From positions 1 to 64,000 of IMG/VR virus record IMGVR_UViG_3300046007_012472: DNA of 64,000 bases; one strand, given 5' to 3'. Position numbers and translations under genes: made by a program. The notes under the pieces were generated by a model. It ran no database searches, was not told where the DNA came from, and saw nothing but the letters and a program-made list of their open reading frames with translations. The stretch comes from a virus. This document shows positions 1,783 through 20,133 of the stretch, one piece after another (position 1 is the first letter of the stretch; each line of letters begins with the position of its first letter).

Positions 1783-1797
1783 AGAAGGATTTATGTT

Positions 1798-2091: not shown

Positions 2092-2105
2092 TTTGTCCTT
2101 GTGGA

Positions 2106-2137: not shown

Positions 2138-2163
2138 AATCTACATATGTTGGAGGTTTAATT

Positions 2164-2394: not shown

Positions 2395-2396
2395 TC

Positions 2397-2702: not shown

Positions 2703-2719
2703 ACCTAAAGAGGTCCCCA

Positions 2720-3106: not shown

Positions 3107-3122
3107 TTACATAAATAAAAAT

Positions 3123-3446: not shown

Positions 3447-3463
3447 ATTTATGGAGATATATT

Positions 3464-3619: not shown

Positions 3620-3620
3620 T

Positions 3621-3872: not shown

Positions 3873-3940
3873 GGATTGGTGTAACGGTAGCACCTTTGAC
3901 TTTGGATCAAATTGTCTAGGTTCGAATCCTAGATCCCTAG
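3870..3940 (+). tRNA. tRNA-Gln(UUG)
   Basis: Anticodon arm TTTGA-CTTTGGA-TCAAA; acceptor TAGGGAT/ATCCCTA; starts on the TAG stop of the upstream ORF. Confidence 0.92.
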
Positions 3941-4249
3941 TTATAAATTACTAGTGATATGATGTAATTTAGCTTGTAATTCTCTTAACTTTTCAGCATG
4001 AAAATTTTGATAAGATCCAGAAGTTAATCTGGAAGTGTCTCCACTTGCCATTCCCCATCCTTGTAACTGTGATGTATGATGAGAAATTTGTTGTCTTAGG
4101 TAATCAACATGCAAATCTACTATTTTAGGATCGCTTCCTCTATACAATTTTCCTTTAATTGGATTTGCTTCTAAAGGTGGCAAATCTTCTTGAGGGGTTT
4201 CTAATGCCTCTCTTAGAGCAGTTTTTATTATGTCTAATCTGGATCTCAT
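3941..4249 (-). CDS. late hypothetical protein
   Basis: TATAAATA at 4268-4275 (minus) and AAGGA RBS upstream. Confidence 0.65.
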   Translation of the reverse strand: MRSRLDIIKTALREALETPQEDLPPLEANPIKGKLYRGSDPKIVDLHVDYLRQQISHHTSQLQGWGMASGDTSRLTSGSYQNFHAEKLRELQAKLHHITSNL

Positions 4250-4281
4250 GCGTAAATTCCTTTTAAATATTTATATAACAG

Positions 4282-4309
4282 TTGACATCTGAATATTCTC
4301 TGGTATAAT
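4282..4309 (+). promoter_or_regulatory. sigma70-type early promoter
   Basis: TTGACA-N16-TATAAT with TGn. Confidence 0.85.
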
Positions 4310-4341
4310 ATGGATGTTGGGACGGGAGTGTTGAATTTGAC

Positions 4342-4412
4342 GCGCCGAGGGCGGACAGTTTCGCAGGGGTGCTTATAACACCCTCAAGCCCGGGCAGCAC
4401 GGGATCGGCGTA
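4342..4412 (+). tRNA. non-canonical tRNA-Ile(UAU)-like element
   Basis: Acceptor GCGCCGA/TCGGCGT + A; D stem GCGG/TCGC; anticodon arm GGGTG-CTTATAA-CACCC; T arm CCCG-GGCAGCA-CGGG without TTC. Confidence 0.7.
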
Positions 4413-4417
4413 TTCTT

Positions 4418-4681
4418 ATGAAAAAGTATTATGCAATCGACGCAGGAAACGAGAATTACCTAAGTGATACGATATATCAAGACAACTCTGCTCGGACTGG
4501 CACTCTGCTTTATTCTAAAAAGTCAGATGCTCTTGAATGTCTTGAAGAGATGGAAAGCATCTGCAAGTATATGAAACGCAAGAGTACATACAGCATGAAT
4601 AAAGTTCAAACGATGGATGGTCCTGTGATTGTAGACGGAGTATGGCATGAACGACTCAAGGGAAACTCGAAATCTAATTGA
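4418..4681 (+). CDS. hypothetical protein
   Basis: 87 aa ORF between the tRNA-like element and the methyltransferase. Confidence 0.6.
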   Translation: MKKYYAIDAGNENYLSDTIYQDNSARTGTLLYSKKSDALECLEEMESICKYMKRKSTYSMNKVQTMDGPVIVDGVWHERLKGNSKSN

Positions 4682-5189
4682 TCATTATCACTATTGGAAT
4701 CATGATGCTATTCTCGCTGAACTTGATTCTCGCAGGCATAATTTTAGCGTTCTTTGTTGCAATCTTTACAATGACTTTAATATTGCAAGCGTTATACGGA
4801 ATGCAAACGCTTTTCTCGCTTCCGAAGTATTACTATATGGGTCCAAGCAGTTTGACCGCAGGGGCACGGTTGGAACCCATCATTACACTCGATTCCGACA
4901 CCTACCTTCGTATGACGATGTGCGAGCGTACTTGTCAGATAAATTCGTGGTCGGAATCGATAATGTTCCCGACTCGAAGCCTATCGATGAATTCGATTGG
5001 CCTACCGATAAGCATGTTGTGATGGTCATGGGGCAGGAACAGGTGGGTGTTCCTATGGAGATTCTTGACATCTGTGATGTCACTCTTTATATTAAACAAT
5101 ACGGTTCTGTACGAAGCCTTAATGTAGCATGTGCGAGTTCAGTTGCTATGTACGATTATTGTAGTAAAACGATAAAATCAGGTGTTTAA
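4647..5189 (+). CDS. SpoU/TrmH-family SPOUT RNA 2'-O-methyltransferase
   Basis: NIASVIRNANAF motif 1, VMGQEQVGV motif 2, IKQYGSVRSLNVACA motif 3. Confidence 0.92.
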   Translation: MNDSRETRNLIDHYHYWNHDAILAELDSRRHNFSVLCCNLYNDFNIASVIRNANAFLASEVLLYGSKQFDRRGTVGTHHYTRFRHLPSYDDVRAYLSDKFVVGIDNVPDSKPIDEFDWPTDKHVVMVMGQEQVGVPMEILDICDVTLYIKQYGSVRSLNVACASSVAMYDYCSKTIKSGV

Positions 5190-5624
5190 TTCTGGATTTT
5201 CTTTTTGCTGACGGTCAAGCCATGCTCTTCCTTTATCTGGTTTTCTTGTATTTTGTGCTTCTCTTTGTTGTGCATCATCTACGCGAACATCTCTTTGTCT
5301 TAATTCTTTTTTGATTGTATGCATAGTATGATGAAATCCACTGAAACCACCTATTTGTTGTTGGTGGTCGTGTATTTGTTTTAATGCATCTCTATGTCTT
5401 TTTATTCCACTACTAGTGCTTATTACAGTTATGTGCTCACCAGTTTTTGGGTGATGTATTTGGATATGTCCACTTTTTCTTTTTCCTTGACCACGATTAA
5501 TAATATAACCCAATAATATGGCTAATTTTTTAATTTGTTCAGGAGCATCGTGATCTGTATGATTTATACCATACAGATATTTCTGTTGACTTTCCTCATT
5601 TAAAAACTGTAAAAATGTTAGCAT
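5178..5624 (-). CDS. late protein with HicA-like motif
   Basis: TATAAATA 5 nt before ATG; MLTFLQFLNE N-terminus; LGY...KSGHIQIHHPKTGEHITV. Confidence 0.6.
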   Translation of the reverse strand: MLTFLQFLNEESQQKYLYGINHTDHDAPEQIKKLAILLGYIINRGQGKRKSGHIQIHHPKTGEHITVISTSSGIKRHRDALKQIHDHQQQIGGFSGFHHTMHTIKKELRQRDVRVDDAQQREAQNTRKPDKGRAWLDRQQKENPELNT

Positions 5625-5669
5625 ATTAGTATTTATATGCCACACCTAAATATGGATAGAGGTTTTATT

Positions 5670-5807
5670 ATGTCAAGAAAACATGATGCCGGTAAGGGAG
5701 ATACATATAGAAAAGTAGACTATAAAAAATGGTCAGAAAATTGGGATAAAATTTTCTCAAAGAAAAGGAAAAAAAATGCCAACACAAATAACCCACGCAG
5801 CAAATAA
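5670..5807 (+). CDS. 45 aa conserved small phage protein (not in ORF track)
   Basis: MSRKHDAGKGDTYRKVDYKKWSENWDKIF; CTAAATA and GAGG upstream. Confidence 0.65.
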   Translation: MSRKHDAGKGDTYRKVDYKKWSENWDKIFSKKRKKNANTNNPRSK

Positions 5808-8205
5808 AGTAACTTATAAATGGACTTTTAATCAAGATGTTCAGGGCGGAACATTCTGGGATGGAAGTCCGTATATCATAAACACACCAGGTTTAAAACT
5901 ATTAAATGTGGAGATGATATCAGAACATGGAACAGAGGGACCAAACAGAGTAATTTCTGATATTGAACTTGGATATTTTAAGAAACCGGGATTTAAGGGA
6001 GAACTTTATATCAATGGTTTGATGAAAAATCCAAAAGGCATGCATGATTATAGTTCAACGGGAGTTAAAAGAGATAAAAATACCGCATTTGATTCTAGAA
6101 GTTTTGGTACATTCGACCAAGGTTGGATACGATTCAGAAATGTAAGAGATCCAGTCACCAAAAAAAATGTAAAAGTTCCCATACCAACAAATTTAGATTC
6201 ATCATATCCAAACTTTAATTTGACCAAGTTCTTGGAAACAAAAACAGAACTTGAAAGCGGTGGTATAAATGTTACAACTGGCGATGTTTTGGTTGTACAA
6301 TGGTCAAACTTTAACAGAGATGCCTCTTTCGCGTGGGACATCAAGAGAGCAACTGGATTTCCTTATCAAAGAATAAAAAGTAGATCGTGTGCATTGTCGT
6401 ATGGAACATTGTTCGTTTTGAATGCAGCACCAGCATCAACTTCATTCAGACCCCCTGTCCTTTGGCCAGAGGGACAAGAAGCAAGCAGACCAATTTATCC
6501 AGTGTCTAAAATAACTGATCGTCCTACACAAGAAGAATTAATTCCAAATCCAGCACCAACACAAAAAGTTTCAAATTTCACAAACGATCCTTCATTTAAG
6601 ACTTTCTGTTATGGAATGCCGTTCGGTGGAGGAACAAATTATTCTCAGGCACTTCCATTATATCCAGCAAGTGTAAAGGGTGATATTTCTGCTTATGGAG
6701 CATATTATCAAAAACCACTAGTATCTCGTTTGGCAACTTTATATTCTGTTGATGTTTCAGATGCACAAAGATTAGAAAATCTGAAAGTCATAGTACAATA
6801 TGGTATAGATGCATTTGGTTCTATAAAATCATTTGCATCTACATCAAGTGGTGCAGGACAAAAACCATGTTCCGCTCGTCCTTGGTCAATTATTGCAGGA
6901 TACTTCTTGGGCGTACCTGACATGAAAGCACCAGAATCAGAAATGCTTAAAGACACTATAAGAACAACAGCATATTTAAATGAAAGAGGGGCGGGAGCAG
7001 AGTTAGAAGATGAAGATGGTGAGTCGGAGGATCAATTAACAGTAAATGAAAAAACTCAAAATATGATTGACCTTTACGGTGATCCGTATGTAGAAGGAGC
7101 AGAAGGACTTACTGCAAAGAAAAGATGGTTGGCACTGCAGACTGCACTGGAAGCACAATGTTACTACAAAGTAAAAGACAAAGTTGGAAGTATTTTAGAT
7201 TATAGAACTTTGGGAAGAACTCACAGAAGAACTTTTTCTGGGGCAGGTGCAAACTTACAACAAACAAATGAAAATACCGAATTTGGATTGATCAGTACAT
7301 TTAAGTCAAGTCTGTCTTTCAGAGGAAATTTTGCAAAAATTCAATGGAATACGGTTCCACCAGATTTAAATAAACAATGGACTGCATCACATGATGGAAA
7401 AGCACCAACTTTCTGGTATTCCTACATCAAAGTAATTTCTGGTCCGGGAGCCGGAGATACCTTATACAGGATTATAAAATCTTGGGGTGACTTTAGAAAT
7501 TCCATAGCAGACAATCAAACGAATGCCACAGGATATGGATTTATTTTAGATAGACCATGGCAACACGGACAGCCTGATACGACAACCACATTTGAAATGA
7601 TAAGCTTTATAGAGAGAAATGTTGGTGAAATTTTCTATCTAATAGGTCCAACTCGTTTTAAAGGTATGGCAGATGCAAATCTTTCTCCGACCACAACATA
7701 TGCACCAATAGCTGAAAATTTGGTTACACCTCTATACGGTTGGATGAAATATATTGAGAGAACAAAAGGAACAAATCCAGATTCAGATAAAGGTTCTGTT
7801 TTGACTCATGAATATGTGGATAGAATAATAGGTGACAGTCCATACGAATGGGTAAGTTATAGTACAGATCGCCATTACTTAGGATATGTTCCATGGGAAG
7901 CAGCAGTCTTTAATAAATTCTACAACAGACCAAATGATCGTGCTGGTCAAGCAGCATTGATAAATTGGGATACTATTCCAGGAATTAAGTATTGGCACGG
8001 AATCACAGTAGATGATTATAGAAATATTCCTTTACCCGGAGACTTTAACAATAATGATATAGTCGATAAAGCAGATGTAAAAATGTTAGTCGATGAATGG
8101 AATAAAGAACTTACTGGTGCTACTTATGATTTGAACAGAGATGGAATAGTAGGAGTTGATGATTTGAAAATACTTATTAATGACTATTACGGAAAAACCC
8201 AGTAA
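5776..8205 (+). CDS. 809 aa protein with C-terminal dockerin-like (paired EF-hand) domain
   Basis: GDFNNNDIVDKAD...YDLNRDGIVGVDDL duplicated Ca-binding loops. Confidence 0.8.
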   Translation: MPTQITHAANKVTYKWTFNQDVQGGTFWDGSPYIINTPGLKLLNVEMISEHGTEGPNRVISDIELGYFKKPGFKGELYINGLMKNPKGMHDYSSTGVKRDKNTAFDSRSFGTFDQGWIRFRNVRDPVTKKNVKVPIPTNLDSSYPNFNLTKFLETKTELESGGINVTTGDVLVVQWSNFNRDASFAWDIKRATGFPYQRIKSRSCALSYGTLFVLNAAPASTSFRPPVLWPEGQEASRPIYPVSKITDRPTQEELIPNPAPTQKVSNFTNDPSFKTFCYGMPFGGGTNYSQALPLYPASVKGDISAYGAYYQKPLVSRLATLYSVDVSDAQRLENLKVIVQYGIDAFGSIKSFASTSSGAGQKPCSARPWSIIAGYFLGVPDMKAPESEMLKDTIRTTAYLNERGAGAELEDEDGESEDQLTVNEKTQNMIDLYGDPYVEGAEGLTAKKRWLALQTALEAQCYYKVKDKVGSILDYRTLGRTHRRTFSGAGANLQQTNENTEFGLISTFKSSLSFRGNFAKIQWNTVPPDLNKQWTASHDGKAPTFWYSYIKVISGPGAGDTLYRIIKSWGDFRNSIADNQTNATGYGFILDRPWQHGQPDTTTTFEMISFIERNVGEIFYLIGPTRFKGMADANLSPTTTYAPIAENLVTPLYGWMKYIERTKGTNPDSDKGSVLTHEYVDRIIGDSPYEWVSYSTDRHYLGYVPWEAAVFNKFYNRPNDRAGQAALINWDTIPGIKYWHGITVDDYRNIPLPGDFNNNDIVDKADVKMLVDEWNKELTGATYDLNRDGIVGVDDLKILINDYYGKTQ

Positions 8206-8211
8206 TCACAG

Positions 8212-8240
8212 TTGACAGAGTGCTTTTAACTTGGTATACT
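8212..8240 (+). promoter_or_regulatory. sigma70-type early promoter
   Basis: TTGACA-N17-TATACT with TGn; followed by a GC hairpin at 8241-8259. Confidence 0.75.
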
Positions 8241-8284
8241 TATAAACTAACCCCCACATGGTGTGGGGGAGAAATGGAGATTTT

Positions 8285-9064
8285 ATGAAGAAGTTTGCAA
8301 CTGTATTGTCTGGATTGGCAACTTCGGTGGCTTTGGCGGGTGATCCCGCCCCGGCAGCGAAGCCCGCTCTGGGCGATCTGAAGTTGGACTTTGGTGCTGA
8401 GGCATCACTGTACAACTTCAAGGGAAACGGCGGGTCGATCCTTGCCATCGTTCCTGAACTCGAAGTTCATGGACTGGCTCAGGGACTCGTTCTTTTTGCC
8501 GAACTCCCTGTGTACGGAGACGATAATCTTACCAATACCACTGGTCTTGGTGATCTTCGTCTCGGTGCTTCTGTTCGCGTTGTTCAAGAGGCTACCGATT
8601 TTGGTGCCGTTTGGCTCGATGTGAATGGCGGAGCCGAAATTCCCACTGCTGGTGGTGAACTCGGTTCTGCAAATGTGAACCCGTTTGTCGGGTTTGTTTT
8701 CGGTCTCGATGAAATTGCGAAGTCTGATTTTGACTTCACTCAAACCTTCGAGTACAAGTTTGTCGGTGGTCCTGCATTCAATCCGTACCTCGGTGGTCAG
8801 ACTGATGCAGACATCATCTTCATGCGTACGGATCTCTCGGTTCCTGTTTGGGGCGATGCACTTGTTGGTGCCGTCACCGTCAAGCAGAACTACACCGTCG
8901 ATCCCGGTGAGCAACAGCTCTTTGTTGGACCCAGCGTCGTCTGGAAGCCAACTGCTGCCACCACCGTTGACTTTGGAGTAGATCTTCCAGTGTGGCAAGA
9001 CCTCCAATCCTTCCGTCCTGAAAACAATTGTGTTGTCTCTGGCGGGCTTACTATCAACTTCTAA
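8285..9064 (+). CDS. outer-membrane beta-barrel protein (COG4313/Phenol_MetA_deg-like)
   Basis: Sec signal MKKFATVLSGLATSVALA; GLGDLRLG motif; alternating beta strands; terminal Phe. Confidence 0.75.
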   Translation: MKKFATVLSGLATSVALAGDPAPAAKPALGDLKLDFGAEASLYNFKGNGGSILAIVPELEVHGLAQGLVLFAELPVYGDDNLTNTTGLGDLRLGASVRVVQEATDFGAVWLDVNGGAEIPTAGGELGSANVNPFVGFVFGLDEIAKSDFDFTQTFEYKFVGGPAFNPYLGGQTDADIIFMRTDLSVPVWGDALVGAVTVKQNYTVDPGEQQLFVGPSVVWKPTAATTVDFGVDLPVWQDLQSFRPENNCVVSGGLTINF

Positions 9065-9075
9065 GGAGAAATATT

Positions 9076-9228
9076 ATGAACGAATCTAAAACTTGCACTG
9101 CTGGGGCTGCTCCGTGTGTTTTTTGCTGGCGTAATCCCCGTCACTGGTACTTCCTGATTGCGACTCTTCCGTTCTTTGCAGCGGGTGTTCGCTTCATTGC
9201 GGACATGCTCGGTAATGTCAGCCAGTGA
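9076..9228 (+). CDS. 50 aa membrane peptide
   Basis: AAGGAG RBS; one hydrophobic segment; CxxC. Confidence 0.65.
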   Translation: MNESKTCTAGAAPCVFCWRNPRHWYFLIATLPFFAAGVRFIADMLGNVSQ

Positions 9229-9246
9229 TCATTGATTGTTGATCAG

Positions 9247-9278
9247 AACGGCATGGGAGAAATCCTGTGCCGTTTTTT
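9247..9278 (+). terminator. intrinsic terminator
   Basis: AACGGCATGGGA-GAAA-TCCTGTGCCGTT + T run. Confidence 0.8.
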
Positions 9279-9485
9279 ATGTTTATGGAATTCAAAAATC
9301 CGATTCCAGTTGTCACGCCTATGGGTGATGGATATGCAATTTATGTTCGTGATGGTGGAACATTCGAAAATGACATCTTCACAGTTGTGCTAGAAGAAGG
9401 CGGAAAAATATTGCATTTCAGATCAGATCAGATTCTGATGCATGCAAATGCGACATTCGATATTAAGAAGACTCGGGTGGTTTGA
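9279..9485 (+). CDS. hypothetical protein
   Basis: EFKNPIPVVTPMGDGYAI ORF followed by hairpin + T8 at 9495-9518. Confidence 0.65.
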   Translation: MFMEFKNPIPVVTPMGDGYAIYVRDGGTFENDIFTVVLEEGGKILHFRSDQILMHANATFDIKKTRVV

Positions 9486-9642
9486 TTTTATTCGCCATGC
9501 ATGGGCATGGTTTTTTTTCTAATTGTATATCAGAAGAATTTCTAAATTGTATTACTTTATTAGTTGGTTTTTCTGTTTTTTGTTCACCATGAACTAAAAA
9601 TTTAAAAATATATTGAGGCAAATGTTCGGATATGTAATGCAT
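9463..9642 (-). CDS. 59 aa hypothetical protein (not in ORF track)
   Basis: MHYISEHLPQYIFKF...KKPCPCMANKIKPPESS directly downstream of the Cys-rich gene. Confidence 0.5.
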   Translation of the reverse strand: MHYISEHLPQYIFKFLVHGEQKTEKPTNKVIQFRNSSDIQLEKKPCPCMANKIKPPESS

Positions 9643-9667
9643 AAAATTTCTTTCTTATATATTTTTA

Positions 9668-12600
9668 TTACGGAGAAGGACCACCACCACCGGGGGGACC
9701 GCCTCCGCCAGGGGGACCTCCTCCACTATCTGGTTCACACGATTCGCCTCCGGATGCTGGTGGAACATTCCCAGGAGAATTTGTGCCACACGCACATTCT
9801 CCAGCCCATATTTGCGGACAATCGGTCGATATACTATTAATAGAATCGGGATAAATAAATCCTCTTCCTGTTACAACATAATTATCAAAAGCTATAATAT
9901 TTTCTGGTTGCAACTGATAACATTCAAAATATGTTTTTATTCCTTTGTAAGTATCTGGAACAGGAACACCATTATTCATCGTGCATTTCCAACAACATCC
10001 TACAGGATTAAAATCAACTGGAGTTCCCAAAAATTGACCATCATATATGAAAGGCCAACCTGCTCCAGGATAAAAAGGACAATTTTCTCTAGAAGAAGCC
10101 CTGTGTGTAGGAAGATGAAGTGGAGGAGGACTGTGTTCAGGGGCATCTACTCTTGGATCACAACATCTACATCCTTCCGGGCCATAATCTAGTGTGGGAT
10201 TTTTACATCCAGCAGAAGCAAAACAATAACTCGATGGACACATATCAGATGTATCTGGTTGCCCTCCACCCAATATTCTATTTTGAATTTGATCACATAT
10301 TTCTCTATGTGCTATAGAATTTGAAAATAGATTTGGAACTGCATTTGCTATTTCTCTTGGTATTTGTAAATTTCTGCACATATGAGGGCAAAAATTTCCA
10401 TAATTACCGGTAGTGACATTTACTTTGTACAAATATGAATCTATTTTTCTTGCACATTCATATCCTCTATTCGGCAAGTATCTTTGTGTATAATACATGA
10501 ATCTGATACCGTCACAATTTGATTTTAATGACAAATTACTACACGGAGTACCTCCGCCTCCAATTTCCCAATAATCTTTACAAACATCAGATCCATAACA
10601 TTCTAATCCAACACAAGATGGTCCTCCTTCTGCAGCTTCTAAACATTCTACTTGAATTGGTGATGTACATTCTTCTCTAAAAATTGGATTTCCTTCTTCA
10701 TCAAATCCATCTTTTATTAATATACATTCATCACAAATATTTTCTGGAACTATACATTGTTGGAGTGGACCGTTTCTTTGTGGTACTCCCATAAGACCAT
10801 CTAAACAACCAAGAAAACTTCCATTACCTCTGAATCTTGGAAGATCTGGTATTTTTACATCTAAATTTATTTCTCCTGGTCCGGCACCAAAATTATATCC
10901 ACCACAGACATAAGACCATCCTCCGGGTCTTGCATGCATGTAAACCCATTGTGTATCTCTCCATAATTTAAAAGCTTTATATTCTGGAGTTTCTGGTTCT
11001 TCAGATCCCGGTGCTGGAGGTAAAGGATATGGACCACCATTCCACGGATCTCTTATCAAATCTGTCGGAAGTTGTAAAGATTCAAATTGTCTACCTTGAG
11101 GATATCTTTCCATTCTTGCAGAGGGAGGAGGTACAGAAACAATGTTTGGTCTGGCTTTTAATGGGTTTGAAATGTTTGGTTCCATGATTGGATCAGGATA
11201 TTCTGGGGGGACTGCTAAAATAAAAGAAGGATTAATTGCCCACCTTTTTCTTACTGGACCCAAATATTTCATTTGAGAGCAAAATTGACTGCTACAAAAA
11301 GATTCACTGCATGTGGTCGCCGGAAAAAAGTTACCACCAGTAAATTCACAATATTGAGCTGAAGTCTCACCTGCGCATGTATTTCCAACACAACAAGATC
11401 CTATATTGGGATCTCCATTTATTATTCCACCATAAGCAGGAGCTGTAAATGTATTGCCCCTTAAAGCTCTAAGTTCAGAACTAGCTTCTTGTCTCCAATC
11501 ACCAACATCCAAATAACCACCAGCAGAAAGTTTTTTCATTATTTCTTGTGGGGGTGTTAGTTTTTGTGCAAATGCTAAATGTATTCTTCTTTTATCTGTT
11601 TCTGAAATATAACCTCTTTCAACTGCGTCTTGTATTTCGAAGTCAAACAAAGGAACTCCAGAACAAGAATATATCCAAAATCTAGGAGCTAATTTTGATG
11701 TATTGTATCCTAATGGAGTGCCTGGATTTTGTGGATCATCTAGCCATCCACCGACTATTCCATTAGGATCGTTATGTTCGGGATTTAAATCACAATGAGC
11801 TAATTCATACCAGTGTTCACAGTGAACAACCCCGACTAAATGCTCATAAAGTGTTCCGTTAAAGTGTTCTCGTACAGTAGCTTCAGACTGTCCTATTGTA
11901 TATTCAAATTCAAGAGCAGGATTAAATTGAATGTTTCCCTCATCATAACACATGATATCCAGGAGCCACATGTAATATGGGTCTCCTTCCATCTGTCTTC
12001 TTCTGTATTTTGAAAGTCTTTTTCCTCTTGGACCAGGATCAGGAGGACCCAGCGTATCTTTTCTTTGACCACTTCCCATACATTGACAGTTATACCATGG
12101 ACTGACAATTCCACCACATTCAGATGAACAAAGAGCATCATTTTCCATACCATCTGGTTGTGAACCAGTAGAATAATCTAAACAAGAATTTTCATAATCA
12201 TAATTTGGATTGCCACAATCACTTCCTATTGTTTCTGTAACACTGGTTGGATCACAATAAGAACATAGTCTTGAGGTTATATTTCTTCTACCATTTGTAT
12301 ATCTTCCTGTTGGTTCATATTCAATTTTAAAGTATTTTCCTATGTAATTATAATAAAATCTTACATTTGATTCTTCTAATTTTGAACGATTACAACATCT
12401 CGATACAGGAGTTAATTGTCTGCAACCACCGGGCAGTAAACAAGTATAGTTAGCGTCCGGATCTCCAATAAATTGTGCCGGACTACCAACACAAAAAGGA
12501 CAAATTCTTTCTCCATTATCATTAAAACAATTAGAACCACATGCTTCAGGTGGATTTTCTGGATTACAGCAAAAATAATTTCCAGGACAGCATTCCGGGC

Positions 12601-12844
12601 CTTCTGGAGCAGGCCAATATGGTCTTTCGTATTCAAATATCAAAGCTTCGTTTTTTGACGGACAACAACCATCACTTTGAGTTACAATATGTCCCTGCAT
12701 GCATCCTTTACATTCAAGTTTATCACATTGACAACATTTACATTTTGTTAAATCTAAAGTGGGGTCTGCTTGTAATTGTCGAGCCCCTTTTCTAAACATC
12801 TTATCAAATATTCTATTAGGCTGTTGATTATAAAAATTTCTCAT
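9668..12844 (-). CDS. 1058 aa cysteine-rich protein, probably virion-associated
   Basis: Many CC/CxC clusters, a GSCC..C......C...GG.F....C repeat unit and a GGGPP tail. Confidence 0.8.
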   Translation of the reverse strand: MRNFYNQQPNRIFDKMFRKGARQLQADPTLDLTKCKCCQCDKLECKGCMQGHIVTQSDGCCPSKNEALIFEYERPYWPAPEGPECCPGNYFCCNPENPPEACGSNCFNDNGERICPFCVGSPAQFIGDPDANYTCLLPGGCRQLTPVSRCCNRSKLEESNVRFYYNYIGKYFKIEYEPTGRYTNGRRNITSRLCSYCDPTSVTETIGSDCGNPNYDYENSCLDYSTGSQPDGMENDALCSSECGGIVSPWYNCQCMGSGQRKDTLGPPDPGPRGKRLSKYRRRQMEGDPYYMWLLDIMCYDEGNIQFNPALEFEYTIGQSEATVREHFNGTLYEHLVGVVHCEHWYELAHCDLNPEHNDPNGIVGGWLDDPQNPGTPLGYNTSKLAPRFWIYSCSGVPLFDFEIQDAVERGYISETDKRRIHLAFAQKLTPPQEIMKKLSAGGYLDVGDWRQEASSELRALRGNTFTAPAYGGIINGDPNIGSCCVGNTCAGETSAQYCEFTGGNFFPATTCSESFCSSQFCSQMKYLGPVRKRWAINPSFILAVPPEYPDPIMEPNISNPLKARPNIVSVPPPSARMERYPQGRQFESLQLPTDLIRDPWNGGPYPLPPAPGSEEPETPEYKAFKLWRDTQWVYMHARPGGWSYVCGGYNFGAGPGEINLDVKIPDLPRFRGNGSFLGCLDGLMGVPQRNGPLQQCIVPENICDECILIKDGFDEEGNPIFREECTSPIQVECLEAAEGGPSCVGLECYGSDVCKDYWEIGGGGTPCSNLSLKSNCDGIRFMYYTQRYLPNRGYECARKIDSYLYKVNVTTGNYGNFCPHMCRNLQIPREIANAVPNLFSNSIAHREICDQIQNRILGGGQPDTSDMCPSSYCFASAGCKNPTLDYGPEGCRCCDPRVDAPEHSPPPLHLPTHRASSRENCPFYPGAGWPFIYDGQFLGTPVDFNPVGCCWKCTMNNGVPVPDTYKGIKTYFECYQLQPENIIAFDNYVVTGRGFIYPDSINSISTDCPQIWAGECACGTNSPGNVPPASGGESCEPDSGGGPPGGGGPPGGGGPSP

Positions 12845-12881
12845 GATTCATCCTATAGGTTTGAACTTAATATGTATGTCC

Positions 12882-12909
12882 TTGACATCTAGTTTTTTTG
12901 TGGTATACT
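12882..12909 (+). promoter_or_regulatory. sigma70-type promoter for the tRNA cluster
   Basis: TTGACA-N16-TATACT with TGn. Confidence 0.8.
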
Positions 12910-12922
12910 TGTGGTAGATCAT

Positions 12923-12996
12923 ATTCCCGTAGCTCAATCGGATAGAGCAACGGTTTTCTAAACCGTTGGTTACAGGTTCGAGTCCTGTCGGGAATG
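12923..12996 (+). tRNA. tRNA-Arg(UCU)
   Basis: Anticodon arm ACGGT-TTTCTAA-ACCGT; canonical T arm. Confidence 0.95.
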
Positions 12997-12999
12997 TTC

Positions 13000-13072
13000 G
13001 CGGGCGTAACTCAGTTGGTAGAGTGATAGCCTTCCAAGCTATATGTCGAGGGTTCAAATCCCTTCGCCCGCT
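13000..13072 (+). tRNA. tRNA-Gly(UCC)
   Basis: Anticodon arm ATAGC-CTTCCAA-GCTAT; acceptor GCGGGCG/CGCCCGC. Confidence 0.95.
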
Positions 13073-13132
13073 TTCCTAAATACTGTGTCGGAGATTGAAA
13101 TGAAAATTAAACTTTTACCATGGAGGTACAAA

Positions 13133-13387
13133 ATGCTTGGACTTGGTTTTAGAACTACATCGTATGCGTTTGCGGCTGCTGCTGGTTTTCTCGTTCTTGC
13201 TGGACAGGAATATCACAAGTTTGCTTTTGCAAGTCTTGTGTGTGCATTGATTCTTGCTTATTTGAAGATCAGTGAAGAATTTGCTGATCGTCGTAACGAC
13301 TGGAACAATCGTCGCGTAGATGATCTTGATGATATGATGCATCGTCATATTTCAGAACTTCAAGAGAAGAAGGCTGATCGCCAGTGA
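13133..13387 (+). CDS. small two-TM membrane protein
   Basis: GGAGG RBS; two hydrophobic segments followed by a charged tail. Confidence 0.7.
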   Translation: MLGLGFRTTSYAFAAAAGFLVLAGQEYHKFAFASLVCALILAYLKISEEFADRRNDWNNRRVDDLDDMMHRHISELQEKKADRQ

Positions 13388-13412
13388 TTCAAAGCCGGGG
13401 AAACCCGGCAAC

Positions 13413-13486
13413 GCTCCCATAGATTAACCGGCTAAATCCCCGCCCTTTCAAGGCGGTGACTCGGGGTTCGAGCCCCCGTGGGAGTA
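13413..13486 (+). tRNA. tRNA-Glu(UUC)
   Basis: Anticodon arm CCGCC-CTTTCAA-GGCGG. Confidence 0.95.
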
Positions 13487-13490
13487 TTTT

Positions 13491-13563
13491 TCCTTCATAG
13501 CTCAGCAGGCAGAGCGTCGAGCTGTTAACTCGAATGTCGTTGGTTCGAGCCCAACTGAAGGAG
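13491..13563 (+). tRNA. tRNA-Asn(GUU)
   Basis: Anticodon arm TCGAG-CTGTTAA-CTCGA. Confidence 0.95.
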
Positions 13564-13571
13564 CTAAAAAA

Positions 13572-13579
13572 TATAAATA
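13572..13579 (+). promoter_or_regulatory. T4-type late promoter
   Basis: Perfect TATAAATA. Confidence 0.8.
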
Positions 13580-13584
13580 ATTAT

Positions 13585-13639
13585 GCCGCTTAGGACCGTC
13601 AGGGTGCGAGACTCCTCATTCCGGGGAGTCTCGCCTTTT
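13585..13639 (+). ncRNA. putative late small RNA antisense to 23S rRNA helix 69
   Basis: G start 5 nt after TATAAATA; CTTAGGACCGT is the exact reverse complement of 23S ACGGUCCUAAG; followed by a 12-bp hairpin (13606-13634) + CTTTT. Confidence 0.7.
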
Positions 13640-14654
13640 AGAGATTTATTGAATTCCCTGAGCCAAAATATCCCAATCCAGCAAGAGAAGAATAAGGATT
13701 TGTTACCGCTGAAGGACCAACAAATCGTGTGGTTCTAGGAATTTCTATTGATGATGGTAATTTATCACATGATGTGTTCTCAAACCATCTCATAGAAGAA
13801 TTATCAAATAATGTCATTCTAACTTGACATTGACCAAAGGTTTGATTTTCATAACACGCAACTTTATTGTTATTTTGGTATATGCCACAAGCACCAATAA
13901 CAGCCGGTCCTGTTGCTGTTGTTATTGAATCAGTTCCTTTTCTTTCTTGCAATAATTCTACTCCAACCCTAAGTCCAAATGTTGCTTCTTGAGTGACTGG
14001 TTCTTCTACCGAAAGGTATTCACTTCCATCTTTGTTTGTGAAAACATCATTTACCGTATAAGTTTTATTGTTTAATTGTGTTCCAGTTATTTTTATTTTA
14101 TCTTTTGGATAAATTCCAAATTTAGTGAAAGATGAAGTTTTGTCTTTAGCCAATGCATTGATAATGATGTATTCTGGTTCGTCCTTTTGTGGAGAAAGAG
14201 ACAACCCAAACTGTGGCGGATTTGTGAAATAATTTGATTCATATCTGAGAATTCTTTTGTTCAGATTGTTGATTGTTACTGGGGAAGCAATAATAACATT
14301 TCCGACAAAATCCTCAAATTCATATGTTCCCCCCAAATTCGCATTTGATTCGGAACCATCCAAAGAATAAATTGCAGTGTTAATCGTGAATGTAAATCCA
14401 GCGGTTAAACCTGAAAAAAGTCCGTTTAACAATGAAATATCGGTATTATTCTGTGAATTCGAATAATCGATCAATACTTTTGTATAATCGGAAGAAAAAG
14501 AAAATGCAGGTATTGTGGAAAGATACTTATTCGTGTTCAATTCTTGAGTCAAATTTATAGTAAAATCCAATCCCAAAAAAATACCCACTCTTGTCGCCAC
14601 GATGTTTGGCGATGATGTTGAATTTTGAAGATAATATTTTTGAGTATAAAACAT
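13638..14654 (-). CDS. hypothetical protein, probably structural
   Basis: 338 aa, beta-rich, C-terminal GAC...C...C...C module. Confidence 0.7.
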   Translation of the reverse strand: MFYTQKYYLQNSTSSPNIVATRVGIFLGLDFTINLTQELNTNKYLSTIPAFSFSSDYTKVLIDYSNSQNNTDISLLNGLFSGLTAGFTFTINTAIYSLDGSESNANLGGTYEFEDFVGNVIIASPVTINNLNKRILRYESNYFTNPPQFGLSLSPQKDEPEYIIINALAKDKTSSFTKFGIYPKDKIKITGTQLNNKTYTVNDVFTNKDGSEYLSVEEPVTQEATFGLRVGVELLQERKGTDSITTATGPAVIGACGIYQNNNKVACYENQTFGQCQVRMTLFDNSSMRWFENTSCDKLPSSIEIPRTTRFVGPSAVTNPYSSLAGLGYFGSGNSINL

Positions 14655-16093
14655 TAAACAAGAGTTATATTTAATATTGCTGCTGATGTTGTTGTCAATG
14701 TGGTAGTTATAAATGCTCTATCAAATAGCGTGGGCAATAAAGCTGATGTTCCCGGTTCCAGAACATAACAACCGTGTAAGAGTGCGGTCACATCTGCCGA
14801 AGCTGATGATATCCTGACATCAATTGTATCGCTTGTTGTTCCGGTTCTGCAACCAGTTCCTGATGTGACACAGGAAGAACCGAGAACATTTGATATATGA
14901 CTTGTCGATGTCAGATAAATTATTTCAGTTGATTTGTTCTGATACAAATAACCATTTGTGGCAAGTGAAGTTGCCAAAACATCAGTCCCGTATAGATTTT
15001 GCTTTAGAAGATTGAATATTGTATATGTTGAGTTTGTTCCTGTTATTGAATATACAAATACTTTGGGATTTGATGTCAAATTTGTTGATGACTTTGTTTT
15101 GACCGTATTTGTTCCATCGCCTATATTTTTGATCTGTTGAAGTAAAGTATTCGCTCCAGTGGCTCCACCCAGAATATCATAGACATATCGAAGCCATGTC
15201 GCAACAGTATGATACTTGGATGTTCCTGTTTCGGGAGCAACAAAGACTTTTTCAAAACTGTTAAGTAAAGATTCGTCTTGACTTTCTTTTCCATAAATTA
15301 TCAATGATTCTGGTGGAATTACATTTACGGGAGATTCATCATCAATCAACACTTCAGTATTTGCCGAGAGGGAAACTGTTCCTGATACCGGAATTGGTTC
15401 ACCATTTGCGGTTCCTTGAATTCTCAACACAGTTCCTGTCACATTTTGTACAGAGACATTTGACGACACATTCACTGTTGCGCTTATTCCAGCACCGACA
15501 ACATTTACATTCAATGCATCACCAGAAGCACCGATTGGTGTTCCACTTGGACCCATGATTCTTGCAAAAACATGGGTGGAACCTGCAGGACCATAAACTT
15601 GTATGCTATCTGTTAGGTTGCTTAGATTCCATGATTTACCAAGAGATCCGGTAACTTGAACTCTGTCTACATCCCAATTTAGTACCTTTCCTCCGGTAAC
15701 AGTGACAGTTCCGGTAATTCCTACGCTTGATCCCAGAATAACACTTCCGGTGACGGCAACGGCAGGTGCCCCAGTGACACCATACACAAAGGTTCTTATG
15801 CCGCCGGTGACATGAACTGGAGAACCGGCAGTGTTAGCCACATTGAATGAGCCTAAGCCATATACAGAACCAGTAATAGTAACGGTTGAAAGGCTACCAG
15901 TCAATCCATACACTTGCACTGGCATTGGAGATGTACTGGTAACTCTATTTACAGTTAGTTCATTTCCCCAAGCAACTTTCATCACTTGAGCATGGGCTGT
16001 AACTCCAGAGTTTGAAAAAATATCAGTTCCGATTATTGCTTGGTTTCCGTCATCTACTGCTACTGGTAAATTATTATCGTTATCGACTGCCAT
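14654..16093 (-). CDS. Gly/Thr/Val-rich fibre-like structural protein
   Basis: Repeated VxVTG / PVxVTG motifs. Confidence 0.7.
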   Translation of the reverse strand: MAVDNDNNLPVAVDDGNQAIIGTDIFSNSGVTAHAQVMKVAWGNELTVNRVTSTSPMPVQVYGLTGSLSTVTITGSVYGLGSFNVANTAGSPVHVTGGIRTFVYGVTGAPAVAVTGSVILGSSVGITGTVTVTGGKVLNWDVDRVQVTGSLGKSWNLSNLTDSIQVYGPAGSTHVFARIMGPSGTPIGASGDALNVNVVGAGISATVNVSSNVSVQNVTGTVLRIQGTANGEPIPVSGTVSLSANTEVLIDDESPVNVIPPESLIIYGKESQDESLLNSFEKVFVAPETGTSKYHTVATWLRYVYDILGGATGANTLLQQIKNIGDGTNTVKTKSSTNLTSNPKVFVYSITGTNSTYTIFNLLKQNLYGTDVLATSLATNGYLYQNKSTEIIYLTSTSHISNVLGSSCVTSGTGCRTGTTSDTIDVRISSASADVTALLHGCYVLEPGTSALLPTLFDRAFITTTLTTTSAAILNITLV

Positions 16094-16160
16094 TAGTTTC
16101 TCCAAAAAAATTGGGAATCATACCTATATATTCCAGTAAGTTTATGGTATAATGATGGCT

Positions 16161-16382
16161 ATGATATTAGACTTAAAGAACAAATTTTCTCGTAGCGTAG
16201 AGCTTTATGTCGAAAAATGGAATGTGTCCTATATGGACGCAGTAATAACATTATGCGAACAGTATAATGTCGAACCAGAAGCGGTAGTAAAGCATCTTTC
16301 GAAGCCAATATTGGAAAAAATAAAAGTAGAAGGTCAAACTCTTAATTTCTTGCCAAAAACAAAAATTAAGTTGCCCTTTTGA
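16161..16382 (+). CDS. 33: late promoter transcription co-activator gp33
   Basis: FSRSVE...SYMDAV..LCE...EPE.V...LSKPILEKIKVE...LNFLPK; TGGTATAAT upstream. Confidence 0.9.
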   Translation: MILDLKNKFSRSVELYVEKWNVSYMDAVITLCEQYNVEPEAVVKHLSKPILEKIKVEGQTLNFLPKTKIKLPF

Positions 16383-16383
16383 C

Positions 16384-16411
16384 TTGCATTCCACTTCCAG
16401 TGTGGTACAAT
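16384..16411 (+). promoter_or_regulatory. sigma70-type promoter of gene 32
   Basis: TTGCAT-N16-TACAAT with TGn. Confidence 0.75.
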
Positions 16412-16456
16412 ACAACCAACAAAAGGCCCGGGTAGTTCCCGGGGAAAGGAACCATT

Positions 16457-17353
16457 ATGTCATTTAGCGATTTTAAGAAGCGTAGCAAGTCTAGCATCGA
16501 CACCCTTGCCAAGAAGCTCCAAGAGGATCTTGGAACCAAGAAGGATTACAAGGATGATCGTTTCTGGCGACCGGAACTGGACAAGACAGGTAGCGGATAT
16601 GCAGTTATTCGCTTCCTGCCAGCCGGAAACAATGAGGACATTCCGTGGGCTAAAACCTACACCCATGCATTCAAGGGTAAGGGTGGTTGGTACATCGAGA
16701 ATTGTCCTACGGCAATTGGTCAGAAGTGTCCGATCTGTGAGATGAACAACGAGCTTTGGAATTCTGGCATCGAGAGCGACAAGAACATCGCCCGCGACCG
16801 TAAGCGTAAGCTTTCGTACATTTCAAACATTGTTGTTATTTCAGATCCGGCAAATCCTCAGAACGACGGCAAAGTTTTCCTGTTCAAGTATGGAAAGAAG
16901 ATCTTTGACAAGATCCAAGAGGCAATGGTTCCCGATTTCAAGGATGAAAAGGCTGTAAATCCATTTGATCCTTGGGGGGGTTCTAACTTCCGTATGAAGA
17001 TTCGTAATGTTGCTGGATATACTAATTACGACAAGTCCGAGTTTGATTCGGCATCTGCTCTCTTCGAAGGTGATGACAAAAAGCTTGAGGCTGTTTGGAA
17101 CAAGCTTTATTCTCTCAAGGAGTTCACTGATCCCTCAAACTTCAAGGCTTATGAGGTTCTTTCCAAGAAGGCTAAGGATGTCATTGGAAGCGATATCCGC
17201 GAGACTTCGACGGATGACCGTACTGTGGAGGACGAGGAGCTTGAGCAGGCTCCACGGGCCTCTGGGGGCCCCAAGAAGAAGGCTGATAAGACTCCCGAGC
17301 CGGAGGAGGAGATGGATTCCATGTCTTACTTCGAGAAGTTGGCTAACGAATAA
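16457..17353 (+). CDS. 32: single-stranded DNA-binding protein gp32
   Basis: DDRFW..DK.G.GYAVIRFLP, WYIENC..CP.C, YGKKIFDKI, NYDKSEF, acidic tail. Confidence 0.97.
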   Translation: MSFSDFKKRSKSSIDTLAKKLQEDLGTKKDYKDDRFWRPELDKTGSGYAVIRFLPAGNNEDIPWAKTYTHAFKGKGGWYIENCPTAIGQKCPICEMNNELWNSGIESDKNIARDRKRKLSYISNIVVISDPANPQNDGKVFLFKYGKKIFDKIQEAMVPDFKDEKAVNPFDPWGGSNFRMKIRNVAGYTNYDKSEFDSASALFEGDDKKLEAVWNKLYSLKEFTDPSNFKAYEVLSKKAKDVIGSDIRETSTDDRTVEDEELEQAPRASGGPKKKADKTPEPEEEMDSMSYFEKLANE

Positions 17354-18679
17354 TTAGCCAACAAATCCCTGTCTCCAAATAGGCAACATGACCGCCGCCA
17401 TGATCGTTTGATCAATGGTGGCCATGTTGTTTATAACGACAGAACTTCCACCACCATATGAAGATGATTTTCCAGAATTTGCTGCTTGGGACTGTACTTG
17501 CATGGGTGGCGGCTCTTTTAATTTTTCTTGGGTCGGCAATGATTTGAATGTGGAGATATAGATGTTATCTCTCATTTTTTCAATTGATCTGGAGTTTTCT
17601 TTGTTTTCATTCAATGGACTGGGTAACATCTGCAACAAAGGATAATTTGGAGTTGATATGGGTTCAGAATTTGCTTTTAATTGACTGAAATTAGTAAAAC
17701 TTTGTGGTTTTATCGTATCTGAAAATAAATTTGCACTTGAAACTCTGGGAATATCCAGTTTGGGAGAAAATGATTGATTTAACTCTTCTGTTGAATTGTT
17801 TGATGTTGGTGATATATTAAATTGTGTTTGTTCTTTATTGTTTGTTTTATTTTCAAAATTCTGGCGAAGATCCGAAAAATATTGATTTGTTTCTTGATTT
17901 TTTTGTGGATTCTTTATACTTAAAGAAGAATTGTAATTTTCAACTTTATTTTGTTTTATATTTGGTATATTTGATTTTGGTGTTATTTCTCTTGTTATTT
18001 CATTATTTTTAGAGAAATCTGTTTTTGTTGAATCATATACTTTAGATAACTTAAAACTTAATTTTTCATCAGAGACATTATCTACGGTGGAATTTGGTTT
18101 AAGATTGCCTTGACTCGTCAATTCTTTTATGGAAGTATTTGGTTTTGAATTGATCTGTGCCGTCGATTCCTTTATCGAAGTATTTGGTTTTGCGTTGATC
18201 TGGGTTGGCAATTCTTTTATGGAAGTATTTGGTTTTGAATTGACTGGACTAGTCAATTCTTTTATGGAAGTATTTGGTTTTGAATTGGTCTGAGTTGGCA
18301 ATTCTTTGATCATCGATTCATTTGGTTTTGGAAATATTGTGGATTTATTTGGTGTATTTTCATACGCATATTTTTTTGCGTATGAAAATTGTTTTGCTTC
18401 TCTGACTTTTTGTTTTACAATTTCATTTGGTTTTGGTGCAGTCAGATTTATTGGAGCAATAGGATTTTTCGTAAATTTCTCTGTTTCATTGTAATAATTT
18501 TTCCAAAATTCACTTATCATCTGAGAGTTTGAATTTCCATCTATTGCAGGCATTGCCTTTTTATCATTTTTATTGTTACTTTTTATGATATTTGGGTTTT
18601 TCCCCATTTTTGGGGGGAATTTAGACTTTGATGGTTTTATTTCCTTTGTAGTGAAGGAATATTGTATTTTTTCTGGCAT
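17354..18679 (-). CDS. low-complexity protein in the gp29/tape-measure position
   Basis: N/K/S/T/P-rich 441 aa; follows gp26-gp51; SSVVINN near C-terminus. Confidence 0.55.
   Translation of the reverse strand: MPEKIQYSFTTKEIKPSKSKFPPKMGKNPNIIKSNNKNDKKAMPAIDGNSNSQMISEFWKNYYNETEKFTKNPIAPINLTAPKPNEIVKQKVREAKQFSYAKKYAYENTPNKSTIFPKPNESMIKELPTQTNSKPNTSIKELTSPVNSKPNTSIKELPTQINAKPNTSIKESTAQINSKPNTSIKELTSQGNLKPNSTVDNVSDEKLSFKLSKVYDSTKTDFSKNNEITREITPKSNIPNIKQNKVENYNSSLSIKNPQKNQETNQYFSDLRQNFENKTNNKEQTQFNISPTSNNSTEELNQSFSPKLDIPRVSSANLFSDTIKPQSFTNFSQLKANSEPISTPNYPLLQMLPSPLNENKENSRSIEKMRDNIYISTFKSLPTQEKLKEPPPMQVQSQAANSGKSSSYGGGSSVVINNMATIDQTIMAAVMLPIWRQGFVG
18096..18330. repeat. 45-bp tandem repeat, about 5 copies (KPNTSIKELxxxxNS)
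   Basis: ATTCTTTTATGGAAGTATTTGGTTTTG recurring with a 45-nt period. Confidence 0.9.
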
Positions 18680-18682
18680 TTT

Positions 18683-18859
18683 TTATCTCTCATTCTTCTT
18701 TTTTTCTTCTTCCAAATGTTGCCTCAGTTGCACGACATATACTTCTCTTTCCCAAGGGATCATGCTTTCTATATCAGCCAACGACCAGTTGTAGATTTGA
18801 ACCAATAAAAAGTTCAATTTGTAAAAATCACTAACACTTATGTGGCTGAGGCAAATGCG
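18683..18859 (-). CDS. 51: gp51-like baseplate assembly segment without its own start codon (-1 frame of gp26)
   Basis: CLSHISVSDFYKLNFLL...WSLADIESMIPWEREVYV...L. Confidence 0.8.
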   Translation of the reverse strand, partial: RICLSHISVSDFYKLNFLLVQIYNWSLADIESMIPWEREVYVVQLRQHLEEEKKKNER

Positions 18860-19548
18860 AAAAAACTGTCTATTCCATATATTTCCAATTGTCTTTCCAG
18901 ACCATCTTTAGTTTTGTATGTTATCGTTTTTCTGAGTCTTGGGGTGGTTTGAAGATAATCTAAAAATTTATTGAGCTGTAGTGATGTCATGTTATCATAA
19001 AAATCACTCAATTCCTCATCAGTCAATTCGTTCTTTTTTACACTGTTATCTTTTGTTTGCAATTCGGCAAAACAAAGTTTAAACTGCTTCTTTGCTTCAT
19101 CATCTTCCTCTTCCTCACACAGATATTTGAGTGTTGGATATTTCATGACCAAAACCATATCATCCGATAGTTTTATTTTTATTTCCGAATTGTCTTGTTT
19201 CGGTAAATCAAAACTTTCAAGGTTTATTTTTGAGGTCACTGTTTCTTGTGTTTCTGGACAACGAATATAGAATGTTGCATTTTCACCTATAGACTTTGCT
19301 CTTACAGCAAGAAAAGCCCGCTCTGCGTCTGCTATCGGCAAATTTTCCGGGTTTGGAATGTCATAAAAGCAGTTTTTTATGATCGTGACCAATGCATATC
19401 CCATTTCCTTTATAGATCCTGTTTGTTGGGCAATAAGAAGAATTTTTTCTTCCCTGACTGTCATTGGTCTAAATTTGTGTTTTTTCTTTGTTATCGGCAA
19501 GAATACATCATAAGTCGGAAGAGCATTTTTCAATAAATCAGAAATCAT
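18838..19548 (-). CDS. 26: baseplate hub assembly chaperone gp26
   Basis: PTY...LP...FRPMTVREEKILLIA, FLAVRAKSIGE, MKYPT, GIDSFF. Confidence 0.9.
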   Translation of the reverse strand: MISDLLKNALPTYDVFLPITKKKHKFRPMTVREEKILLIAQQTGSIKEMGYALVTIIKNCFYDIPNPENLPIADAERAFLAVRAKSIGENATFYIRCPETQETVTSKINLESFDLPKQDNSEIKIKLSDDMVLVMKYPTLKYLCEEEEDDEAKKQFKLCFAELQTKDNSVKKNELTDEELSDFYDNMTSLQLNKFLDYLQTTPRLRKTITYKTKDGLERQLEIYGIDSFFAFASAT

Positions 19549-19569
19549 ATATTACCTTTCATTTTAAGT

Positions 19570-20133
19570 TTAATTTGAGTCATTTCCCATTGAAGATACC
19601 ACAAACGACATTGTTAATGTTTGTGGATCTGGTTTTCCAGATTCGAATCTCAGGGGAAGAATTTTTTCTAGAAAACAATTGTTATAATTGTAAGTTCTAA
19701 CAGGATCATCATTCACTCTGTTATACGCTGTAATTCGGATTCTAACCCCAGGAGCATTTCCTGTTCTTATGGCAGAAAAACTGCCTGCGTCAGCCGGAAT
19801 CGTGCCGCCATAAAAAAACGAACCACCGTTATTCATAAAAAAGAAAGCTCTTGTGTATTCATTGATAAATTTAAACAATTCACCATCAATTTTTTCCGGA
19901 ACAAGTAGTTGAATAACAATACTTTCTCTGAATTTTACGCCAATCGGCATTTTGAAAAACGGGTTCCCTTGCCAATAATTTATGTCCAAAAATTCATAAC
20001 TTGGACCAGGCAAATCAACAGCAATTACATTTTCGTCGAACACATAATTTCCTATTGCAACGGTATATCTTGAGCTGTCTTGGACACCTTCTGTGGCTAT
20101 AAAAGTTTTTAACATGTCTATGGATTGGCTCAT
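19570..20133 (-). CDS. tail tube-fold baseplate protein (gp54/gp19-like)
   Basis: Position next to gp4; SRY.V, VDLPG and C-terminal Y.Y.NCF...I...TLTMSF pattern. Confidence 0.55.
   Translation of the reverse strand: MSQSIDMLKTFIATEGVQDSSRYTVAIGNYVFDENVIAVDLPGPSYEFLDINYWQGNPFFKMPIGVKFRESIVIQLLVPEKIDGELFKFINEYTRAFFFMNNGGSFFYGGTIPADAGSFSAIRTGNAPGVRIRITAYNRVNDDPVRTYNYNNCFLEKILPLRFESGKPDPQTLTMSFVVSSMGNDSN

Follow-up and report, generated by a model that had tools for sequence, protein, structure and literature searches.

The viral record IMGVR_UViG_3300046007_012472 is a phage contig of 76,436 bp, estimated by CheckV to be 35% complete, and we refer to its first 64 kb, the whole stretch of DNA that was analysed, as the window. 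Coding sequence occupies 96% of the contig, and judging by gene content (gp32, gp43, a baseplate wedge protein and tail fibres) the phage is T4-like; its closest isolates by gp32 are marine cyanomyophages and Pelagibacter phage Mosig, at about 53% identity. DNA of this phage is present in 24 lake-water or freshwater metagenome runs, and none of the public runs containing it is listed as RNA.

The locus under study, sRNA-2 (13572-13639), begins 8 nt past the end of a tRNA cluster with the order Arg, Gly, 114-aa ORF, Glu, Asn, ahead of which lies a good sigma-70-like promoter (12882-12909). An earlier note, made from the DNA letters alone, had described here a box, the stretch GCCG-CUUAGGACCGU-CAGGGU and a 12-bp hairpin, and each of these elements is present where it was placed. 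The features of the locus and the two T4-like genes used to classify the phage are the following:

13491..13564, plus strand: tRNA-Asn, which closes the upstream tRNA cluster (outside sRNA-2, given for context)
13572..13579, plus strand: TATAAATA box, read as a putative T4-type late promoter (NATAAATA); ATAAATA invariant in 13 variants
13585..13605, plus strand: 21-nt 5' seed, made of GCCG (13585-13588), CUUAGGACCGU (13589-13599) and CAGGGU (13600-13605); identical in 13 copies and unpaired in the fold
13606..13639, plus strand: intrinsic terminator, a 12-bp GC-rich hairpin followed by C and UUUU, from the fold and covariation in relatives
13638..14654, minus strand: convergent 338-aa ORF of no recognised family, its stop codon abutting the U-tract of sRNA-2
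16457-17353: gp32
55917-58433: gp43 DNA polymerase

The arms of the terminator (13606-13617 and 13623-13634) enclose a 5-nt loop, AUUCC, and the RNA folds with -27.2 kcal/mol (z = -3.3), leaving its 21-nt 5' part essentially unpaired. Both hallmarks of an intrinsic terminator, a GC-rich stem-loop and a U run, are found, and a simple scanner missed it because just 4 U follow the stem. Transcription would start at about 13585-13587, some 6 nt after the box, giving an RNA of about 53 nt. ARAGORN and Rfam recovered the four flanking tRNAs and nothing at 13572-13639, and the Rfam 15 covariance models matched only the flanking tRNAs when run on the sRNA-2 region, both at gathering thresholds and at E <= 10. 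A tRNA, a tRNA fragment or a T-loop was ruled out as the identity of sRNA-2. The 114-aa ORF inside the cluster (13043-13387, plus strand) belongs to no known family; its start overlaps the 3' part of tRNA-Gly, it is kept in all syntenic relatives at 45-84% identity, and a small GC hairpin (about 13394-13409) follows it.

For the late promoter that the earlier note implied upstream of sRNA-2, the observations point both ways. The box is conserved, and 13 of the 25 NATAAATA boxes in the 76-kb contig have an ORF start on the same strand within 120 nt downstream, far above chance, the genes behind them including baseplate and tail-fibre genes; the exact octamer TATAAATA, by contrast, is not enriched in the 64-kb window (4 found versus 5.2 expected). 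A T4-type late promoter is a plausible reading of TATAAATA, one that fits the placement of NATAAATA before ORF starts.

Conservation of the unit in related phages

That sRNA-2 is a small RNA gene of its own, with promoter box, seed and terminator, was borne out by its conservation as a unit. Pattern scans of viral and metagenome collections, complemented with a relative reached via the 338-aa protein, yielded 13 distinct variants, all from lake-phage contigs that show synteny. None of these 13 copies departs from ATAAATA in the box or from the 21-mer, the full box reading CATAAATA in some of them, while the flanking 338-aa protein ranges from 36 to 65% identity across the syntenic copies. Gene order is the same in all copies: a homologue of the 114-aa ORF or tRNAs, then the RNA, the convergent 338-aa ORF, a 483-aa ORF and gp32. 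Across 7 sequences the terminator hairpin has 84 of 84 cells paired, with 3 pairs changed on both sides, against 44-58% in slid controls, and its loop varies freely among the 13 copies (AUUCC, UUUCC, AUUUC, AUCAC, GAAA and others). It is this conservation, an invariant box and 21-mer joined to a covarying hairpin, that in our comparison of sequences raises sRNA-2 above chance. When the same promoter and start (TATAAATAATTRTGCCGC) were sought with another seed behind them, only chance matches came up. How easily short exact patterns recur in these collections is seen from the exact 17-mer GCTTAGGACCGTCAGGG, which also occurs by chance in an unrelated coding region of five viral contigs (L003, L005, L007, L009 and L013).

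The comparison of relatives also bears on whether sRNA-2 could be a mere terminator of the tRNA operon, perhaps serving the convergent gene too, with the preceding bases a processing remnant. Its position between tRNA-Asn and the stop codon of the convergent ORF would suit such a role, and the whole cluster could be transcribed from the sigma-70-like promoter at 12882-12909. We nevertheless find this improbable, since box and 21-mer stay invariant while flanks and loop change, and no U-tract lies beyond the hairpin on the minus strand. Moreover, the upstream neighbour of the unit differs among relatives, being another tRNA, an extra ORF or a separate terminator. A relative with a 61%-identical 338-aa protein carries a near-identical sRNA unit with an extra ORF inserted between it and tRNA-Asn (L001, about 200 aa, 5040-5650, minus strand), from which it follows that the movement of the unit is not tied to the tRNA cluster. 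Several copies have a separate terminator hairpin and U-run immediately 5' of the box, and the resulting order of terminator, box, RNA and terminator points to an independent transcription unit.

The same alignments make a leaderless micro-protein starting at ATG 13583 very improbable. An ORF at 13583-13738 does stand in the ORF list, and one relative has GTG at the same place, but the frame is lost beyond the hairpin, where differing loop lengths shift it and stops differ, and the compensatory changes keep pairing rather than codons.

A wider class of phage RNAs and its 23S-complementary blocks

We scanned viral contigs with the pattern ATAAATA-N6-16-CTTAGGACCGT and obtained matches in 55 of them, from many unrelated groups; block and ATAAATA box together occur in at least 50 phage contigs other than that of sRNA-2. 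Proteins in common with the phage of sRNA-2 accompany 30 of 89 class loci, gp43 being found in 25 of these 30. Most class-scan matches are larger members of 75-110 nt, in which the blocks follow the order (C)CUUAGGACCGU, a hairpin with a frequent AGUUAY loop, AGGCGUC, a hairpin, and a hairpin with a (G)AUUCGCUACC loop, this last one often being the terminator. The blocks go together: 19 of 31 non-minimal contexts with the first block also have TCGCT[AC][CT] within 130 nt, and a reverse search anchored only on AGGCGTC...GATTCGCTACC found TTAGGACC upstream in 41 of 71 contexts, versus about 0.1% by chance, the other 30 being mostly chance matches in GC-rich coding DNA. Neither catalogue that we consulted contains the class: 18 class loci had no match in Rfam 15 at gathering or permissive thresholds, and blastn of sRNA-2 and one larger member against 50,697 GenBank phages gave no real match.

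A structure alignment of 26 members with the commonest architecture showed covariation of P2, P3 and P4, and also of a pseudoknot that joins the P3 loop to the 3' tail (148 double-change cells, compared with 62 +/- 7 in shuffled and at most 56 in slid alignments), with the rRNA-complementary blocks located in the junction and loops. The pseudoknotted members of about 100 nt (L155, L156, L159, L215-L289 and others) carry the invariant blocks CCUUAGGACCGU, AGGCGUC and GAUUCGCUACC, and often lie near gp43 in T4-like contigs, though also in contigs of up to 524 kb. Other architectures are three-hairpin forms in relatives of the phage of sRNA-2 (for example L140) and forms with the first block only (for example L141-143). 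In a further subfamily, seen as 5' leaders (L166, L185, L188, L217, L222, L223, L236, L241, L252 and others), a hairpin loop of 12-13 nt contains the block, and behind it stand a small hairpin, a terminator-like hairpin with a GAUUCGCUACC loop and a U-run; downstream come GGAG and a basic ORF of 51-64 aa (MRLFELFEAK...PRNFVAKNA...GAGSH...RKEKHK), for which family searches gave just weak matches to phrog_1359 and DUF7230 and no informative family. Such an arrangement resembles an attenuator. In leader-type members the first block reaches further 5', to CUACC, which is complementary to 1929-1933, and insertions and substitutions are tolerated in the UUA part of the block only.

sRNA-2 shares with the larger members the NATAAATA box 9-16 nt before the block (box 13572-13579, block from 13589), the block itself (13589-13599 is exact, and the base before it is G, not the C of (C)CUUAGGACCGU) and the 3' GC-rich hairpin with U-tract; the class occurs in T4-like and other large aquatic phages. 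sRNA-2 differs in its length of about 53 nt and in having neither pseudoknot, AUUCGCUACC loop, P2 with its AGUUAY loop nor the AGGCGUC block, of which only GUCAGGG resembles the 3' flank, as in L185; the loop (G)AUUCGCUAC(C), complementary to 23S 1928-1936, is likewise absent, the terminator loop of sRNA-2 being AUUCC and variable in the 13 copies. A search of the 76 kb for a full-length class member elsewhere found none. By common block and promoter geometry sRNA-2 belongs to the class as we define it from sequence, and we read it as a minimal member that would use the first block alone as a free 5' seed. Since the first block can stand alone as a gene, sRNA-2 narrows down where the function of the class resides.

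For each block we determined the single longest complementary match anywhere in E. coli 16S, 23S and 5S rRNA, given here in the coordinates of the rrn operon L290 (canonical minus 1):

GCCTTAGGACCGT (first block): 23S 1918-1929, 12 nt
GCAGGCGTCA (AGGCGUC block): 23S 1826-1835, 10 nt
GATTCGCTACC (loop block): 23S 1928-1936, 9 nt
TAGTTAC (P2 loop): 23S 1909-1915, 7 nt

These sites cover the base of H67/H68, the loop and 3' strand of H69, and the 5' strand of H70. Monte Carlo simulation put the chance of the first block matching anywhere in rRNA at 0.0027, of the loop block matching within 15 nt of the first-block site at 0.0005, and of AGGCGUC matching within 120 nt of it at 0.0017, and the joint chance of the multi-block complementarity to 23S is about 1e-9. 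By these calculations on sequence, the complementarity of the class to 23S domain IV is non-random, and the main support for the idea of an rRNA partner put forward in the earlier note comes from class blocks that sRNA-2 itself does without. Two further resemblances were put aside. The GGCGGCUGCUGCC hairpin, which only a minority of members have, covaries and its loop pairs with the 3' tail, and a match of at least 7 nt of this type to the 16S 530 loop is found in only 18 of 98 members; the identity of AGGACCG to the sarcin-ricin loop is a 7-mer of the kind expected by chance.

The fold of the larger members lends itself to another explanation, in which the block serves for folding or for recognition by a protein or ligand (for example as a GGA-containing loop bound by a host or phage RNA-binding protein), the larger members having a riboswitch-like core and sRNA-2 acting as a decoy or sponge. 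Compact pseudoknots with invariant junction and loop bases are aptamer-like, one subfamily takes the form of 5' leaders whose terminator-like hairpin precedes a small conserved ORF, and many members hold the block within a short hairpin loop, as in ACGG-CUUAGGA-CCGU. Within the larger RNAs the CCU in the first block forms pairs with the AGG in AGGCGUC, and RNAalifold pairs GGCG with CGCU of the loop block, at positions that are invariant and hence can give no covariation signal; such internal pairing means that the blocks could be conserved for the RNA's own fold, a protein or a ligand. We hold this explanation to be unlikely, as it leaves unaccounted for the complementarity of three to four separate blocks, each to a neighbouring part of a single rRNA region, and as flanking genes differ and no protein partner is consistently linked.

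The match of sRNA-2 to helix 69 and the Planctomycetota signature

CUUAGGACCGU is indeed the exact complement of 23S A1919-G1929, as we verified against the E. coli rrn operon L290 (ACGGTCCTAAG), where these nucleotides are annotated as 1918-1928. The pairing of 15 of 17 positions with E. coli that the earlier note had counted was also reproduced, the six bases past the 11-mer giving 3 Watson-Crick pairs, 1 G-U pair and 2 mismatches. An 11-nt perfect complement somewhere in the 4.5 kb of rRNA is, however, expected by chance for about 1% of such 21-mers, and in RNAduplex calculations shuffled seeds equalled the real one in 18 of 150 cases with E. coli and 17 of 150 with Phycisphaerales rRNA; since they do equally well, duplex energy gives the 23S match of sRNA-2 no significance. 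RNAduplex places the best site of the seed in E. coli 23S elsewhere than at H69; in Phycisphaerales 23S H69 is the best site, yet again without significance relative to shuffles. As the seed never varies, it offers no covariation with a target, and taken alone the 23S match of sRNA-2 is weak evidence.

These figures leave room for a trans-acting sRNA whose seed pairs with some other RNA (host or phage mRNA, or tRNA), the 23S match being a by-product. A seed followed by a terminator is an architecture typical of mRNA-targeting sRNAs, the duplex energy with 23S is no better than that of shuffled seeds, and a phage target could lie outside a contig that represents 35% of the genome. Within the 76 kb, though, the seed had only its own antisense strand as a target, other sites being at background energy, and the remaining class blocks map beside the first one on 23S. 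Furthermore, the block is unchanged between phages with hardly any proteins in common, a constancy that calls for a partner conserved everywhere. We therefore consider another RNA target somewhat unlikely, and think that sRNA-2 probably pairs with the large-subunit rRNA of its host, a view built on the class as a whole.

The two mismatches had led the earlier note to predict G1918 and a pyrimidine at 1916 in the host. The first prediction met a real lineage signature, that of Planctomycetota, while the second did not hold: a pyrimidine at 1916 was seen in just 7 of 120 matches listed, and nearly all listed G1918 genomes keep A1916. In a scan with one genome per species, whose figures are those of the matches listed, 56 of 80 listed G1918 H69 matches were titled Planctomycetota (Phycisphaerae, Planctomycetia and others), the rest being a few Spirochaetota, Patescibacteria, Rickettsiales and others. 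Sampling 201 Planctomycetota genomes, we found the H69 site in 77, and most of the matches listed were G1918; A1918-type matches in this sample lay largely on tiny contig ends. A1918G in the H69 loop (GUAACUAUGACGG) thus appears to be a near-universal Planctomycetota signature, with sporadic occurrence in Spirochaetota, Patescibacteria and Rickettsiales.

With G1918 the perfect match of the seed grows to 13 nt and 16 of 17 positions pair. The DNA search of 151 Phycisphaerae genomes with positions 1-20000 of the window returned tRNA look-alikes only and no evidence of a host. The larger members qualify this picture: the base after ACCGU begins the P2 hairpin in them, and is C, G or U irrespective of 1918. 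GUCAGG follows the GGC of the AGGCGUC block in the larger members L177 (GUCAGGCGG) and L185 (GUCAGGGG), and because of this neighbourhood the CAGGGU extension of sRNA-2 may be family heritage instead of pairing with the H69 loop.

Proposed action and relation to known RNAs

The model that we propose for sRNA-2, with moderate confidence and from sequence comparison, is a free-standing late sRNA that pairs, through its seed, with 23S 1919-1929 and further bases, affecting H69. The late promoter box TATAAATA would drive a transcript of about 53 nt, composed of the unstructured 21-nt seed and the terminator hairpin; the seed would base-pair with 1919-1929 and extend towards the H69 loop, on free 50S subunits or on unfolded or precursor 23S. 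Pairing would alter H69, a helix that makes bridge B2a and has a part in subunit joining, decoding, termination and recycling. From the transcription start and its timing to rRNA as the actual partner and every downstream effect, these steps are what we infer. Two pieces of background restrict the model. Nucleotides 1920-1929 are base-paired or packed in the mature 50S, so access would need unfolding or precursors; and T4-like phages usually stop host rRNA synthesis early, which makes a late role against assembly odd. More tentatively, and at somewhat below even odds, we suggest for the class that aquatic phages of many lineages make RNAs docking onto the H68-H70 junction and H69, with sRNA-2 as a stripped-down guide whose C13600 is possibly adapted to the G1918 of Planctomycetota ribosomes.

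We know of no natural phage or bacterial RNA that targets helix 69 or its neighbours. A literature search for phage RNA antisense to H69 found no paper, and a word search for two of the class blocks gave only rRNA-oligonucleotide papers and cloning papers, the latter presumably listing the I-CeuI site. New here are the minimal one-block form, its conservation record of 13 variants and the G1918 signature of Planctomycetota that matches C13600. If the 23S pairing is true, phages would possess a natural RNA-based means of manipulating or sensing the ribosome, and with it a new layer of control, or sensing, of host ribosomes; the 53-nt form would then be a very small natural candidate for a probe or inhibitor, directly synthesisable. 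Even without such pairing, a large, highly conserved and uncatalogued family of structured phage RNAs calls for explanation.

Among known systems, sRNAs of the RybB/OmrA type and DicF resemble sRNA-2 in having a short unstructured 5' seed followed by an intrinsic terminator under their own promoter, but they target mRNAs, usually with Hfq, whereas the best candidate partner of sRNA-2 is rRNA. The complementary blocks of the larger members are displayed in hairpin loops that open with YUNR-like bases (CUUA, UUCG), in the manner of the kissing-loop antisense systems CopA/CopT and RNA I/RNA II; these, however, are cis-encoded and fully complementary to one plasmid transcript, while the class blocks are short and permuted and their proposed partner is host rRNA. 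T4 stable RNAs C and D are, like sRNA-2, small non-tRNA RNAs beside a T4-type tRNA cluster with no function assigned, yet they are larger and processed from the tRNA transcript; the likeness is one of description. Synthetic antisense oligomers (PNA/oligomer drugs) against H69, reviewed in PMC12828698, have the same rRNA region as target, and differ in being artificial, the class RNAs being predicted natural phage transcripts.

The window holds a second ORF-less unit, sRNA-1 (587-683, minus strand), which adjoins the other tRNA cluster. Its RNA includes GGAGGUGAUC within a stretch complementary to the 3' end of 16S rRNA. All fetched genomes have the canonical 16S 3' terminus (GCGGCUGGAUCACCUCC), which therefore singles out no host and leaves 2 positions of the 17-nt match of sRNA-1 non-Watson-Crick in every one. 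The layout of this unit runs from AATAAATA at 676-683 through a structured RNA and a hairpin to a U-run.
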